Below, piece by piece: positions 49,737-55,355 of a stretch of 64,000 nucleotides of DNA. Source of the stretch: an uncultured Clostridia bacterium (GTDB lineage Bacteria > Bacillota > Clostridia > TANB77 > CAG-508); assembly GCA_904384245.1 (NCBI GenBank), contig CAJFJM010000001.1, forward strand, positions 21,252 through 85,251, read 5' to 3'. The notes below the pieces were generated by a model. That model made no database searches. It was not told the origin of the DNA and saw nothing but the letters and a program-made list of their open reading frames with translations. Positions within the stretch are counted from its first letter, which is position 1, and every line of letters starts with the position of its first letter. A program made the position numbers and the translations under genes.

Positions 49737-50123
49737 ATGGAACCTGTTCAAAATACAGGAAATGAAAATCTAAAAGGTATAGCAAAAGGAGTTTTAATTT
49801 CAATTTGCACAACAATAATTGCATGTTTAATATTTGCAGTAATTTTAACATATACAAATATAAGTGAAGATACCATTACACCAGTAATAATAATGATTAC
49901 AGCTATTAGTATATTTATAGGAAGTACAATAGGAAATGCAAAAATTCAAAAAAATGGATTAGTAAATGGTGCAGGTGTTGGATTTATATATATAATAGCT
50001 ATTTATTTAATATCAAGTATAATAAATGGACATTTTACTTTAAATATTGCATCAATTATTATGATTGTCTTGTCTATAGTATTTGGAATATTAGGAGGAA
50101 TAATAGCGGTAAATAAAAAATAA
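49737..50123 (+). CDS. TIGR04086-like small membrane protein found in sporeformers
   Basis: AGGAGGGG RBS before ATG 49737; 4 TM; …GIAKGVLISI…. Confidence 0.55.
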   Translation: MEPVQNTGNENLKGIAKGVLISICTTIIACLIFAVILTYTNISEDTITPVIIMITAISIFIGSTIGNAKIQKNGLVNGAGVGFIYIIAIYLISSIINGHFTLNIASIIMIVLSIVFGILGGIIAVNKK

Positions 50124-50165
50124 ATGTATTTTTTGTTCCTTAGAGTATGAAGAGATTAAGGTTGA

Positions 50166-50232
50166 TTTGTCGAATTTTGCGATGAGTTTTTGCAAAAAAA
50201 TGTTGACAAATCTTCTTTTCGTCTTTATAATG
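50166..50232 (+). promoter_or_regulatory. consensus promoter TTGACA-17-TATAAT (50203-50231) overlapped by an imperfect palindrome containing a Spo0A-box-like TTGTCGAA
   Basis: GATTTGTCGAATTTTGCGATGAGTTTTTGCAAAAAAATGTTGACAAATC: TGTCGAA at 50169-50175, inverted TTGACAAATC overlapping -35; the 12-mer TGTCGAATTTTG recurs at 24661. Confidence 0.5.
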
Positions 50233-50356
50233 AAAATACATTTTCATATTTTTCAATAATTTAAAAAATTAAAATCTAATTTAAATTTATTCGAAAATTT
50301 ATTTCTAAAGATTCTAAAAGATTCAAAAAATCTAAAAATCCACAAAACAAAAAAAT

Positions 50357-50962
50357 ATGAATGGAGGAATGTTATTGAGTAAAAAGAAAAAAGTAATACT
50401 TATTGTATTAAGTTTAGTAGTATTAGTAGCAACATTTTTTGGAGGACAAACTTTTTCAAAATATGTAACAGAAGTTAATGGAAAAGGAGTTGCAAATGTT
50501 GCAAAATGGAATTTTAAAGTAAACGAAAGTGAAAGTAAAATACAAACGATAAATTTAAGTTCAACAATAGATAATAGCACTTTAATAGATAATAAGATAG
50601 CACCAGGTACTTCAGGAGATTTTGAAATTAAATTAGATGCAACTGGAGCAGAAGTAGGTATAGATTATAAAATTACATTTTTAAATGAAAGTAATAAGCC
50701 ACAAAATTTAGTATTTACATATCAAGATACTAAGTTTCAGAATCTTAAAGATATGGAAAGTGCATTAAAAGGAACAATATTAGCAGATGAAGAACAAAAG
50801 GAAAAAGTATTTAATATTCATTGGGAATGGCCATATGAAACTGGAACAGGAGCAGAGATACTAACTAATGACAAAATAGATACACAAAATGGAAAAGAAA
50901 TTCAAGAATACACATTTGATGTATTAGTAGAAGGTGTTCAAACTATACCTCAAGCAAGTTAG
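50357..50962 (+). CDS. secreted protein with SipW-cognate-type signal peptide (TasA/BsaA-like matrix or fibre subunit candidate), paralog A
   Basis: KKKK…VLVATFFGGQTFSKYVTE resembles SipW-dependent signal peptides; likely TTG start at 50375 after GGAGG; shares …KIAPG(T/I)(S/E)G(D/N)F(E/D)I… and …NKPQNL… motifs with the 52147 ORF. Confidence 0.5.
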   Translation: MNGGMLLSKKKKVILIVLSLVVLVATFFGGQTFSKYVTEVNGKGVANVAKWNFKVNESESKIQTINLSSTIDNSTLIDNKIAPGTSGDFEIKLDATGAEVGIDYKITFLNESNKPQNLVFTYQDTKFQNLKDMESALKGTILADEEQKEKVFNIHWEWPYETGTGAEILTNDKIDTQNGKEIQEYTFDVLVEGVQTIPQAS

Positions 50963-50971
50963 GATGATTAG

Positions 50972-51340
50972 ATGAAGAAAAGTAAAAAAAGCAATTTAAT
51001 CTTTATATTATTTATAATTTTTTTAATCTTAATTTTATTTCTAAAATTTTGCATTATTAAAGACAATACAAGTTTATTCGGAATAACAATTTTAAAAGTA
51101 TCGTCAAATAGTATGTTTCCAACTATAAAAAAAGATGATTATATAGTTATAAAAAAACAAAAAGATTATGAAATAGGAGATATTATTACCTTTAAATCAA
51201 AGGAAGATTGCTTAATTACTCATAGAATTATAGAAAAATATGAAAATGTATTTATTACAAAAGGTGATAATAACAACATTTCTGATGATGAACAGGTAAA
51301 AATGGGAGTGATATTGGGTAAGGTAATATTCATTTTATAG
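50972..51340 (+). CDS. sipW: signal peptidase I, SipW-type (archaeal/eukaryal-like S26)
   Basis: 122 aa; N-terminal TM, SSNSMFPT catalytic Ser motif, …ITHRI…GDNN…. Confidence 0.8.
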   Translation: MKKSKKSNLIFILFIIFLILILFLKFCIIKDNTSLFGITILKVSSNSMFPTIKKDDYIVIKKQKDYEIGDIITFKSKEDCLITHRIIEKYENVFITKGDNNNISDDEQVKMGVILGKVIFIL

Positions 51341-54129: not shown

Positions 54130-54158
54130 TGTAAAATTTTAATTTTTTATGTATAAGG

Positions 54159-54210
54159 AGAATATCCTATAATTAGTTTAGAAATTTTAATTATAGGATA
54201 TTCTTTTATA
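54159..54210 (+). terminator. terminator: perfect 16-bp inverted repeat then T-run
   Basis: AGAATATCCTATAATT…AATTATAGGATATTCT followed by TTTTAT. Confidence 0.65.
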
Positions 54211-54336
54211 ATCTTCACTGTTACAATTCACGGCTAAAATAAACCGCCAGCCAAAAGAAGTTATTATATAAAAAGAATATAAAAATACTCGACAAAATAT
54301 AAAAAAAGTGTTAATATGTTTATAACTAAAAAATAT

Positions 54337-54411
54337 TGGGGTGTAGCCAAGCGGTAAGGCAGATGGCTCTGACCCATCGATGCGTAGGTTCGAATCCTAC
54401 CACCCCAGCCA
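54337..54411 (+). tRNA. tRNA-Gln (anticodon CTG)
   Basis: TGGGGTGTAGCCAAGCGGTAAGGC…CTCTGAC…GGTTCGAATCC…CACCCCAGCCA; close to the E. coli tRNA-Gln architecture; possible promoter TCGACA-17-TAATAT at 54290-54318. Confidence 0.9.
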
Positions 54412-54494
54412 ATTAAGTATTATATGAACACAAAATGTTTATATTTAGGTACTAATATCTATCCAACAAAGTAAAAAACGAAAGAGGTATGATA

Positions 54495-55355
54495 ATGAAA
54501 AATGTTTTAAAAAACGAAAGAGGAATAACTTTAATGGCTTTAGTAATTACTGTTATAGTATTACTTATATTAGCAAGTATAGGAATATATAATGGTTTAG
54601 GAACAATTCGTTCTTCTAAATATATGGCTTTTAAAACAGAACTAGAATTATTACAATCTAGTGTTAATAAAATTTATTCAGAAAATCCAAATAATTTAGA
54701 AAGCTATGGAGTAGATATGACAAGTGAGCAAAAAGAAATATTTAATGTAACTGAAGTTTCAAATATTTTAAATAGTTTAAGTAGTGATATAGAAAGCATA
54801 AAATCAGGTTTTAAATATTTTTCAAAAGATTATATAGTGTCAGATTTAGGAATACAAGGAATAACAAATGATTACTATATAAATTTAAGTAAAAGACTTA
54901 TTATAGTTGTAGAGCCATTTGAATATGAAGGAACAACATATTATATGTTAGAGCAAATGGAAGATGGAATTTATAATGTAGCATATAATAGAGATATTGG
55001 AGATGTAGTGTTTACAGTAACATCAACAGTTCACGAAGATAATACAGTTGATATAAATATTACAGATATACATACTTCAAATGACCAATATATAAATAAA
55101 TGGCAAATTAGATATAGAAAGCAAGGAACAGATATATGGAATACAACTGAAGAATTTATAGGAAATAGCTATACAATAACTGTAAATGAGAAAACTACTT
55201 ATGAAATAGAAGTATTTCATGGTAAAGACATTGTATCACAAGTAACAACAATTTCTATAGAAAATGCAGAAAATATAGATAGTCAAGTTCTTGATACAGA
55301 AATAAATAACCAAAGTTTAAACATAGATAGGCAAAGCTTAGATGTAAATGTATAA
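54495..55355 (+). CDS. secreted protein with non-canonical pilin-like N-terminus and Ig-like C-terminal domains
   Basis: AAAGAGG RBS 7 nt before ATG 54495; N-terminus MKNVLKNERG|ITLMALVITVIVLLILASIGI resembles a prepilin leader plus hydrophobic helix but has A, not E, at +5. Confidence 0.4.
   Translation: MKNVLKNERGITLMALVITVIVLLILASIGIYNGLGTIRSSKYMAFKTELELLQSSVNKIYSENPNNLESYGVDMTSEQKEIFNVTEVSNILNSLSSDIESIKSGFKYFSKDYIVSDLGIQGITNDYYINLSKRLIIVVEPFEYEGTTYYMLEQMEDGIYNVAYNRDIGDVVFTVTSTVHEDNTVDINITDIHTSNDQYINKWQIRYRKQGTDIWNTTEEFIGNSYTITVNEKTTYEIEVFHGKDIVSQVTTISIENAENIDSQVLDTEINNQSLNIDRQSLDVNV

Follow-up and report, generated by a model that had tools for sequence, protein, structure and literature searches.

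A conserved cluster of paralogous exported proteins with an optional SipW-like signal peptidase, a candidate surface-fibre system of uncultured gut Clostridia

The stretch of DNA analysed here (64,000 nucleotides, hereafter the window) comes from an uncultured, very AT-rich Clostridia bacterium (25% GC), whose lineage has been met only in metagenomes from the gut of humans, chickens, rabbits and mice. It carries two markers of a spore-former, SpoIVA and SASP. Between the genes for tRNA-Met and tRNA-Gln lies a co-directional cluster for exported proteins, in which A, an ER/archaeal-type (SipW-like) signal peptidase, X205, B and Y448 are tightly packed on one strand (Table 1). A first-pass annotation of the same DNA had been made from the letters alone; the two tRNAs and all the open reading frames it named were found in place, all on the forward strand, as were the paralogous proteins of about 200 aa with their large secreted partner.

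Table 1. Features of the cluster and its surroundings (positions in the window).
Feature	Position	Strand	Remark
tRNA-Met(CAT)	49379-49455	+	conserved neighbour, not an island boundary; ARAGORN, Rfam
TIGR04086/DUF3792 small multi-pass membrane protein	49737-50123	+	conserved upstream neighbour of the cluster
Upstream element TGTCGAATTTTGCGATG	50168-50184	+	contains the exact Spo0A-box heptamer TGTCGAA
Sigma-A-type promoter TTGACA-17-TATAAT of the A operon	50203-50231	+	12/12 match
A, exported protein of ~195 aa, proposed major subunit	50357-50962	+	
Minimal ER/archaeal-type (SipW-like) signal peptidase, 122 aa	50972-51340	+	TIGR02228
X205	51494-52111	+	possible third, very divergent paralogue of A
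B, paralogue of A	52147-52767	+	BLASTP, hhalign
Y448, secreted three-domain protein	52783-54129	+	
tRNA-Gln(CTG)	54337-54411	+	within the cluster's 3' end; ARAGORN, Rfam
Pilin-like protein, 288 aa	54489-55355	+	accessory neighbour of the cluster

Gene order was compared in 89 related loci of uncultured gut Clostridia from different species, and the core order DUF3792 – A – [peptidase] – X205 – B was conserved. The DUF3792 gene (TIGR04086, 87.9 bits; PF12670, 82.5 bits) has an open reading frame from 49707 or 49737, the ATG at 49737 being preceded by an AGGAGG ribosome-binding site, and it was found upstream of A in 69 of the 74 loci with enough flanking sequence. The gene for tRNA-Met has the same place upstream of the DUF3792 gene in loci L004, L005, L007, L015 and L087, and that for tRNA-Gln directly precedes the pilin-like gene in relatives both near and far (L004, L005, L011, L013, L033, L034, L037, L067, L085 and L087-89). 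Among close relatives, with 70-89% protein identity, tRNA-Met, tRNA-Gln, HPF and SASP are placed identically.

The first-pass annotation had taken the flanking tRNA genes as a sign of an acquired island, and had named conserved synteny of the tRNA-Met to tRNA-Gln interval in relatives as the finding that would speak against it. The interval is conserved, both tRNAs included, and the idea of a horizontally acquired island inserted at a tRNA gene was rejected, its probability being close to nil. Apart from the tRNA genes on both sides, only a slight GC dip (to 0.20 at 52000-53499) would favour it; the GC content of the interval (0.20-0.27, against a window mean of 0.25) does not deviate and stays inside the range of the window, and neither an integrase ORF nor att-like or tRNA-derived direct repeats were found. 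The cluster is an ancestral, conserved chromosomal part of these uncultured AT-rich gut Clostridia, and tRNA flanking by itself is a poor indicator of an island.

The leader of A reads KKKK-hydrophobic-FFGGQTFS/KYVTEV, where the slash marks the predicted cleavage site. Since homologues of A begin at MSKKKK, its true start is probably 50369 or 50375. Comparison of A and B bore out the proposed paralogy, with 36% identity over 149 aa (BLASTP, E=5e-26) and an hhalign probability of 100% for B against the A family. Pfam and NCBIfam searches gave no match for A or B, and no Pfam match was obtained among 548 homologues of A. With a threshold of E<=1e-3 and a single representative for each 50%-identity cluster, the A family numbered at least 3,592. 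A and B belong to a large family without name, Pfam model, NCBIfam model or annotation. Long members of the family carry adhesin-type repeats (Flg_new, GLUG).

In an AF2 model of A (mean pLDDT 65), the core is a beta-sandwich. The closest solved folds, all weak matches, were FimG, CfaB and the TasA fibre, and the fold matches overall were generic Ig-like sandwiches. Conservation within A is highest in an amphipathic N-terminal segment (KYVTEV..VAxVAKWxFKVN), nearly invariant and with alternating hydrophobic residues. It is disordered in the monomer model, where the conserved residues 27-81 (the N-terminal 55) had a pLDDT below 50. The leaders of A, X205 and Y448 all end in small residues followed by Lys (..TFS/KY, ..SIG/KS and ..VNA/KY), a cleavage context that is recurrent across the three families. 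B has instead, aligned to FFGGQTFSKYV of A, the bulky motif FFQ[DE]D[LI]IFFK[LI]F, kept in 58 homologues in place of the cleavage-site region. With such residues at this site, B is probably an uncleaved, membrane-anchored subunit, and it is strictly co-conserved beside the cleavable A.

X205, always located between A and B, consists of a Lys-rich cytoplasmic tail, a transmembrane/leader segment, the site ..LAGCSIG/KS and an extracellular domain of ~130 aa. The LAGC motif had been read as lipobox-like. Inspection of 77 homologues revealed mostly Y or F at the Cys position, sometimes C or H, while the surrounding G, S, G and K were kept (consensus LFFSG[YFC]S[MI]GK..IAKPILEVEN..IQIKVHSEQxKV). 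As the Cys at +1 is not conserved, a lipobox lipoprotein was rejected, and the match to Pfam LPAM_1 was below cut-off. The leader is A-like instead: X205 has its leader and first strands in common with A, and hhalign against the A family gave a probability of 96.9% at full length and 23.6% once the leader was removed. X205 is possibly a third, very divergent paralogue of A.

The leader of Y448 ends in ..NFVNA/KYVFEY. Two Ig-like domains (residues 44-157 and 164-229) are followed by a C-terminal beta domain (235-448) with a ChW-like unit, a likeness that rests on one of 46 homologues. The model is disordered only at the conserved mature N-terminus. In related loci, Y448 is found downstream of the core, or inverted upstream of it.

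The peptidase scored 83.4 bits with TIGR02228 (cut-off 51.85), matching positions 2-120 of the 158 in the profile. Its translation contains the boxes VSSNSMFP, GDIITF, ITHRI and KGDNNISDD, in which, from what is established of Sec11/SipW-type enzymes, we take the Ser of SxSMxP, the His of HR and the Asp of GDNN..D to be the catalytic residues. As judged from its sequence, the protein is a signal peptidase of the ER/archaeal (SipW-like) type in which no catalytic box is missing. The closer label of a Bacillus-like SipW did not hold: the score with the Bacillus equivalog NF046067 was 64.2 bits, below the cut-off of 190, and the enzyme is unusually short, ending ~20 residues past the GDNN box and missing the C-terminal part (membrane segment) of Bacillus SipW. 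The peptidase gene lies between A and X205 in 25 of the 89 loci; because it is absent from the other 64 clusters, it is not an obligate partner. Linkage of the A family to SipW-type peptidases was observed in the window, in these 25 clusters and in a second, independent cluster of L067, ordered sipW-A'-B'-sipW-X', where both peptidases are full-length SipW-type enzymes.

The promoter lies between the DUF3792 gene and A and is separate from the former. It is a perfect sigma-A consensus at the place given by the first-pass annotation. Promoter-like matches at a loose threshold were no commoner than in shuffled sequence (58 found, 59 expected), so the significance of this promoter comes from its conservation in relatives and not from the consensus match itself. 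The -35 and -10 hexamers and the downstream 17-mer were invariant across five species, and a conserved leader, TACATTTTCATATTTTT, follows downstream. The promoter had further been described as overlapped by a Spo0A-box-like palindrome, which proved incorrect: the palindrome TTTTTGCAAAAA (50187-50198) is not kept in relatives, and the exact Spo0A-box heptamer, TGTCGAA, stands clear of the promoter (50168-50174), 29 bp before the -35 hexamer. The TGTCGAATTTTGCGATG element that contains it is kept in the window, L007 and L015, and is partly covered in L004 and L023. This exact heptamer suggests stationary-phase or sporulation-phase control, but it is not rarer than chance, with two copies in the window where 1.5 are expected.

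The 288-aa protein encoded past tRNA-Gln has a leader ..KNERG/ITLMALVITVIVLLILASIG, and 17 full-length homologues, all unnamed, were found. Lengths in the family range from 254 to 1047 aa, and the family N-terminus is [KNS]G[IV]TL[IV]ALVITIIVLLILA[SG] (consensus G[IV]TL[IV]ALV). Like type IV pilins and pseudopilins (N_methyl, ComGC, GspG), the protein begins with a short, basic leader whose last residue is Gly; a hydrophobic helix of ~22 residues comes next and runs into a long amphipathic helix. Unlike them, it has Ile at +1 (Ile or Val in the family, not Phe or Met) and Ala at +5 (Ala, Val, Ser or Thr, not Glu), and the C-terminal parts in the family vary from 250 to 1,000 aa. Curated pilin models matched only its N-terminus and below cut-off (PilA_Myxo, 20 bits against 400; GspG, 13 bits against 88.85). 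The protein was consequently not classed as a type IV pilin or pseudopilin (N_methyl, TIGR02532). Its gene adjoins the cluster in ~21 of 70 loci; among related clusters, no more than roughly a quarter to a third contain it, and the same holds for the peptidase gene. Farther on (~4 kb downstream, 59072-63779), genes for CpaB-like, TadZ-like and T2SSE ATPase proteins are syntenic in close relatives.

The cluster had been likened to tapA-sipW-tasA of Bacillus and to sipW-bsaA of Clostridium perfringens. In B. subtilis, TasA forms donor-strand fibres (PMC9674648, PMC10151520); the C. perfringens operon is sipW-bsaA-bsaB-bsaC (Obana 2020, PMC7395162; Kivimaki 2025 preprint, PMC11580942). The parallel in architecture stood, whereas no sequence-profile link to TasA was found. 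Kinship to the TasA/BsaA family was judged with TasA and the Pfam/NCBIfam models PF12389 (Peptidase_M73) and NF046066. Neither model matched the cluster proteins, and PF12389 was found in none of 97 diverse A-family members. Alignment of the A-family profile with TasA by hhalign gave a probability of 1.6-3.6%, over the signal peptide region only, and profile searches against PDB sequences retrieved neither TasA nor a link to any solved structure. A and B had also been credited with SipW-type signal peptides. The SipW-cognate signal model TIGR04088 detected the TasA control (41.6 bits) but none of the N-termini of A, X205, Y448 and B, even at E<=10, and the leader of A resembles a SipW-type leader only loosely (KKK..GGxT[FW][AS]).

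With tapA-sipW-tasA, the cluster shares a SipW-type peptidase adjoining exported subunits, the leader type KKK-hydrophobic-GGxT[FW][AS], a conserved N-terminal segment that is a candidate donor strand, and an accessory protein whose N-terminal segment is that of the main subunit (TapA in Bacillus, X205 or Y448 in this cluster). It differs from it in gene order and in the size of the peptidase (122 aa, versus ~190 aa). The combination of SipW, paralogous donor-strand subunits and a large secreted partner has published precedent (PMC11580942, PMC9674648). Like the C. perfringens operon, the cluster is clostridial and has an ER-type signal peptidase, a large secreted partner and a pair of small paralogues; there, and by proposal here, these are beta-sandwich proteins and a single one of the two polymerises. 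In C. perfringens the polymer of BsaA stays attached to the membrane, as the predicted anchor B would ensure here. A type IV pilin link is functional there, secretion of BsaC depending on PilA3 (PMC11580942), and here a pilin-like gene adjoins. In contrast to that operon, no sequence relation was detected here with the TasA, Pfam and NCBIfam comparisons, the large partner has Ig-like and ChW-like domains and no von Willebrand A domain, X205 adds a third protein with the shared leader, B as the anchored paralogue has a predicted uncleavable leader, no sortase adjoins, and the peptidase is optional. Chaperone-usher pilins (FimG, FimA, CfaB, CsuA/B) are Gram-negative and need a periplasmic chaperone as well as an outer-membrane usher, both of which are absent here; TM-scores with them were only 0.3-0.44, and there was no sequence similarity.

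We hold, with about as much confidence as doubt, that the cluster encodes a TasA-like, donor-strand-type surface fibre or matrix system. All four proteins (A, X205, B and Y448) would be exported by the Sec pathway, and the SipW-like peptidase would cleave A, X205 and Y448 before Lys, a step that an enzyme encoded elsewhere would perform in the 64 of 89 loci without a peptidase gene. B, its N-terminal helix left uncleaved, would remain anchored in the membrane and act as the membrane-proximal base. Once freed, the N-terminal segment of A would serve as a donor strand that completes the beta-sandwich of the following subunit, a step modelled on TasA, BsaA and chaperone-usher pilins, and A would thereby polymerise. 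X205 would start or cap the fibre in the manner of TapA. A similar N-terminal segment would let Y448 join, and with its Ig-like and ChW-like domains Y448 would attach the structure to the cell wall or to a ligand.

That the proteins form no fibre at all appears rather unlikely. A, X205 and Y448 would then be Sec-exported monomeric envelope proteins or adhesins, B an anchored relative and the peptidase an extra type I enzyme. Such a surface or secreted set would fit the generic nature of the Ig-like fold matches, the absence of a profile link to any fibre family, a peptidase that is dispensable in most clusters, the adhesin-type repeats of long family members, and the Ig-like domains and ChW-like unit of Y448, as in wall-associated proteins. 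It fits less well with the disorder that the monomer model shows in the best-conserved, amphipathic N-terminal segment of A, with the strict conservation of a predicted uncleavable, anchored paralogue beside a cleavable one, and with the repeated link of the family to SipW-type peptidases, which in known cases serve fibre subunits (PMC9674648, PMC11580942).

Two other readings concern the setting of the structure. A Spo0A-switched, sporulation-linked one, such as a spore-coat-associated layer or a spore-surface layer or appendage and not a vegetative biofilm fibre, is improbable. The promoter is a perfect sigma-A type, not of the sigma-E, -K, -F or -G kind, and the presence of leader peptides and of a membrane anchor implies that the proteins cross the membrane of the mother cell or of a vegetative cell. 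The conserved, exact TGTCGAA upstream of the promoter speaks for this reading, but a single heptamer is within chance expectation, and Spo0A controls biofilm genes too, so that the box does not discriminate. The host is a spore-former, with SpoIVA and SASP in the window and SASP and HPF as syntenic neighbours, and TasA was initially described as spore-associated (PMC9674648). Still less probable is a link to a type IV pilus or Tad-like machine, with the cluster proteins as its cargo or partners and their secretion or display aided by the pilin-like protein and the Tad-like ATPase locus. The pilin-like gene that follows some of the clusters and tRNA-Gln, the syntenic Tad-like genes and the published precedent (PMC11580942) are compatible with it. 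However, most clusters have no pilin-like gene beside them, its product lacks Glu at +5 and a curated model above cut-off, unrelated genes separate the Tad-like genes from the cluster, and a crude motif scan of the window gave no prepilin peptidase.

Returning to the fibre reading, a stronger version of it can be proposed, with considerable doubt. A and B, perhaps with X205, would form a new superfamily of Gram-positive surface-fibre subunits, unrelated by descent or extremely remotely related to TasA. Its way of assembly would be new: A polymerises by donor-strand exchange onto an uncleavable membrane-anchor paralogue, with a ChW-like wall-binding partner and no need of a sortase or a chaperone-usher system. 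The system would be a core trait of an abundant lineage of uncultured gut Clostridia. If the fibre model is true, the pairing of a cleavable subunit with an anchored paralogue that escapes cleavage would amount to a simple, sortase-independent anchoring rule for Gram-positive donor-strand fibres. A conserved operon with a consensus promoter is in any case a good candidate for attachment, aggregation or matrix-building in the gut. Definition of the A/B family, which has thousands of members, would give a name to many "hypothetical proteins".

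The gene cluster between the two tRNA genes was found as the first-pass annotation had described it: seven co-directional ORFs lie between and just past tRNA-Met and tRNA-Gln, two of them encode paralogous exported proteins of about 200 aa (A and B), and a perfect promoter precedes them (ORFs, ARAGORN/Rfam, BLASTP and promoter scan). The cluster is thus an operon for exported proteins that is conserved and has its own promoter. One paralogue of its pair is of the cleavable type and one is not, several of its proteins have the same type of leader, and a SipW-type peptidase recurs in it as an optional member. 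Since homologues of A start with MSKKKK, the true start codon of A is probably at 50369 or 50375, rather than at 50357. A literature search for DUF3792, TIGR04086 and YrzE gave nothing relevant. Just 5' of tRNA-Met, a protein without family match carries Gln/Glu/Val-rich repeats (VQNVPVEQAVQRVQEVQQPQLQKVEEVKQENVQV).

Features of the cluster and its surroundings (window positions)
Feature	Position	Strand	Size or evidence
6S RNA gene	27186-27380		Rfam RF00013, 73.8 bits
SpoIVA	37153-38631	-	
LonC-like protease	43122-45515	-	
Gln/Glu/Val-rich protein	48261-49199		312 aa
tRNA-Met(CAT)	49379-49455	+	ARAGORN, Rfam
TIGR04086/DUF3792 membrane protein	49737-50123	+	87.9 bits
Spo0A-box heptamer TGTCGAA	50168-50174		exact
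Promoter TTGACA-17-TATAAT	50203-50231		12/12 match
A	50357-50962	+	201 aa
S24/S26-type peptidase	50972-51340	+	122 aa; TIGR02228
X205	51494-52111	+	205 aa; no family
B	52147-52767	+	206 aa; paralogue of A
Third perfect TTGACA-17-TATAAT	52466-52494	+	inside B coding sequence
Y448	52783-54129	+	448 aa; no family
tRNA-Gln(CTG)	54337-54411	+	ARAGORN, Rfam
19-nt direct repeat	54472-54490, 54508-54526		
Pilin-like protein	54489-55355	+	288 aa; weak N-terminal matches only
GtrII-like membrane glycosyltransferase	56015-57487		PF14264, 7.5e-17
Alpha/beta-type SASP	57630-57827	-	
Tad/Flp-pilus-like genes	59072-63779		

The proteins and tRNAs of the window were mapped onto 89 related loci from uncultured gut Clostridia. 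The order A, (peptidase), X205 (a further leader-bearing protein), B was invariant, and DUF3792 lay upstream in 69 of the 74 loci with enough flank. The secreted protein Y448 was found in 82 of the 89 loci. In 49 of these it lay 3' of B; in the other 33 it was inverted and placed between DUF3792 and A. Loci L087-L089 (86-89% protein identity) had the complete order tRNA-Met, DUF3792, A, peptidase, X205, B, Y448, tRNA-Gln, followed by the pilin-like gene, HPF, GtrII-like, SASP, HAD hydrolase and Tad-like genes. At about 70% identity (L004, L005, L007, L023) the positions of tRNA-Met, tRNA-Gln(CTG), HPF and SASP were unchanged, and in distant genomes with a relocated Y448 (e.g. L034, L067, L085) the cluster still ended with tRNA-Gln(CTG) and then the pilin-like gene. 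The GC content of the interval was 0.20-0.27 (mean 0.25), and it contained neither an integrase ORF nor a tRNA-derived direct repeat. The interval had been taken for a tRNA-flanked acquired island; it is syntenic in relatives, both tRNAs included, and this shared order, the unremarkable composition and the lack of repeats exclude the reading.

It is unusual for a tRNA to be held at one place inside a protein-gene cluster over such divergence; tRNA-Gln(CTG) separated the pilin-like gene from the final gene of the cluster in L004, L011, L013, L033, L034, L037, L067, L085 and L087-89. The sole clearly variable gene of the neighbourhood is the GtrII-like one: HPF and SASP flank it in the window and in L087-89, and it is missing from that slot in L004 and L005.

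The peptidase was matched by TIGR02228, the curated model of ER/archaeal-type signal peptidases, with 83.4 bits (cut-off 51.85), and the Sec11/SipW-type catalytic boxes (SNSM, GD, THR and GDNN..DD) are all readable in its translation. With the Bacillus SipW equivalog it scored 64 bits, far under the cut-off of 190. The protein stops about 20 residues past the last box, so that the C-terminal membrane segment is missing. Only 25 of the 89 loci have the gene between A and X205; in those without it the gap is 100-200 nt long and holds no gene remnant, which makes the peptidase an accessory member of the cluster. The genome of L067 carries, in addition to the main cluster, a second, paralogous one (1393-4285 of the locus) with the order sipW (209 aa), A' (198 aa), B'-like (199 aa), sipW (196 aa) and X', an X205-like gene. 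Both of its SipW-type enzymes are full length (TIGR02228, 106 and 99 bits). Taken with the linkage in the main cluster, this indicates that the tie between the A family and SipW-type peptidases is real, and not obligate in cis.

Leaders were compared by aligning homologues extracted from the loci. The sites of A (..SFIGGQTFS/KYVTE, the slash marking the cleavage position), Y448 (..[VI]x[AN]A/KY[IV]) and X205 (..LFFSG[YFC]S[MI]G/K) were alike: positions -1 and -3 are small, and +1 is Lys. Given this site in X205, the Cys of its LAGC sequence in the window is not a lipobox Cys; it is not conserved among X205 homologues, which rules out the lipoprotein proposed earlier at this position. Type I signal peptidases require small residues at -1 and -3. 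Where A has GGQTFS/KY, B carries a conserved bulky motif, FFQ[DE]D[LI]IFFK[LI]F, that breaks this rule and suggests that B stays uncleaved, held in the membrane by its N-terminal helix. X205 has its leader and first strands in common with A; its hhalign match to the A family (96.9% probability at full length, 23.6% without the leader) was largely carried by the leader. For the mature region of Y448, the hhalign probability was below 1% with A or X205, and homology to either was rejected on this test.

A and B are 36% identical over 149 aa (E=5e-26) and were aligned throughout by hhalign (probability 100%). All 193 genomic relatives of A in a species-representative genome collection were MAGs of uncultured Clostridia from the guts of humans, chickens, rabbits and mice, with "Clostridium sp. 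CAG:575" and "Clostridium sp. 26_22" among them. None of 548 close homologues, about 195 aa long, had a Pfam domain. When 1.84 billion cluster representatives were searched with a profile, 3,592 matched at E<=1e-3, of which 1,377 reached E<=1e-10. KIAPG-x-x-G-x-F, WxW-YE and D-T are invariant in the family, and an N-terminal stretch, KK–hydrophobic–T-x-A/KY…G…A-x-VAKW-x-F, is likewise conserved. Among 97 diverse members there was no consistent Pfam family and no match to Peptidase_M73, and the 10 distant members checked bore no name in their sources. Some members of 427-957 aa have an N-terminal A domain followed by Flg_new or GLUG repeats. Three such representatives (P0296, P0334, P0378; 570-957 aa, with Listeria-Bacteroides (Flg_new) or GLUG repeats) suggest that the A domain could also be the base of larger adhesin-like proteins.

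Sequence tests gave no support for membership in the TasA/camelysin family. With a TasA query 100% identical to PDB 8aur, hhalign aligned the signal peptide alone to two A-family profiles (probability 3.6% for A1 and 1.6% for A3), and A-family profile searches of PDB sequences found no match; Pfam and NCBIfam were also negative, and direct membership was rejected. The leaders had been called SipW-type, but the curated SipW-cognate model TIGR04088 missed all the isolated N-termini of the cluster proteins, whereas the TasA control scored 41.6 bits.

The promoter had been said to be overlapped by a Spo0A-box-like palindrome. This palindrome, TTTTTGCAAAAA, is unconserved in relatives, and an exact Spo0A-box heptamer lies 29 bp upstream of the -35, clear of the promoter. 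In five aligned species, the -35 and -10 hexamers, a 17-nt downstream segment (TACATTTTCATATTTTT) and an upstream one (TGTCGAATTTTGCGATG) were invariant where covered. No RNA element was found by Rfam in the 120-nt operon leader. The third perfect promoter-like sequence, 5' of Y448, may act as an internal promoter or have arisen by chance in DNA of 25% GC, the value of the whole window.

The architecture is a variant of that of SipW-associated matrix-fibre operons; its building blocks come from the large A/B family, which is unnamed in databases and could not be connected to TasA by sequence tests. To our knowledge, neither the cleavable/uncleavable paralogue pair nor the ChW-like partner (Y448) has been described. 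Extreme divergence and multi-paralogue operons with signal peptidases are already known in the TasA/BsaA superfamily (PMC11580942). By analogy, A would polymerise, each subunit lending its conserved N-terminal segment to the one that follows, as in TasA and BsaA (PMC9674648, PMC11580942), B would be the membrane anchor, X205 a TapA-like starter or cap (PMC10151520), and Y448 would tie the structure to the wall or a ligand. We give this model, as a whole, an even chance. An AF2 model of A, built with 40 homologues, was of moderate quality (mean pLDDT 65, core about 80-90) and showed a beta-sandwich from residue 85 or so on; residues 27-81 were below 50, though the best-conserved positions of the family fall there. 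The predicted fold is weakly compatible with a donor-strand-type pilin. A fold search with Y448 returned generic Ig-like matches only, and none for its C-terminal domain. The main rival, a set of surface proteins that do not polymerise, appears possible but rather doubtful.

A sporulation-specific role is a lesser possibility. The host is an endospore-former, as indicated by SpoIVA, the LonC-like protease, SASP and HPF, all encoded in the window; the window holds two copies of TGTCGAA for 1.5 expected, and conservation is the only argument for a function of the heptamer. Another lesser possibility is a pilus-dependent secretion route. BsaC of C. perfringens, a product of the sipW-bsaABC operon, needs a type IV pilin in order to be secreted (PMC11580942); the parallel with the cluster is a lead, not a result. 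A motif scan of the window for a prepilin peptidase or PilB Walker box found nothing, and Pfam detected a T2SSE ATPase where that scan had none. It belongs to the Tad-like set about 4 kb downstream of the pilin-like gene (a SAF-domain, CpaB-like protein of 387 aa, two ParA/TadZ-like proteins of 230 and 279 aa, and the T2SSE-family ATPase of 656 aa), which is syntenic in close relatives, with the same order in L087. These genes may encode the apparatus that serves the atypical pilin-like proteins.

The pilin-like protein has the N-terminus KNERG/ITLMALVITVIVLLILASIG, with putative cleavage at Gly. Glu+5 is missing, and no curated pilin model matched at cut-off. Its family, present in several copies per genome, has a highly conserved start, G[IV]TL[IV]ALVITIIVLLILA[SG], and C-terminal parts of 254-1047 aa. 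Only 17 full-length homologues were found, none of them named in the sources. The gene lies 3' of the cluster in about 21 of the 70 loci with enough flank, and is thus an accessory neighbour. One copy of the 19-nt direct repeat, TAAAAAACGAAAGAGG[T/A]AT, forms the ribosome-binding site and start region of this gene, and the other codes for KNERG, directly ahead of the putative cleavage Gly.
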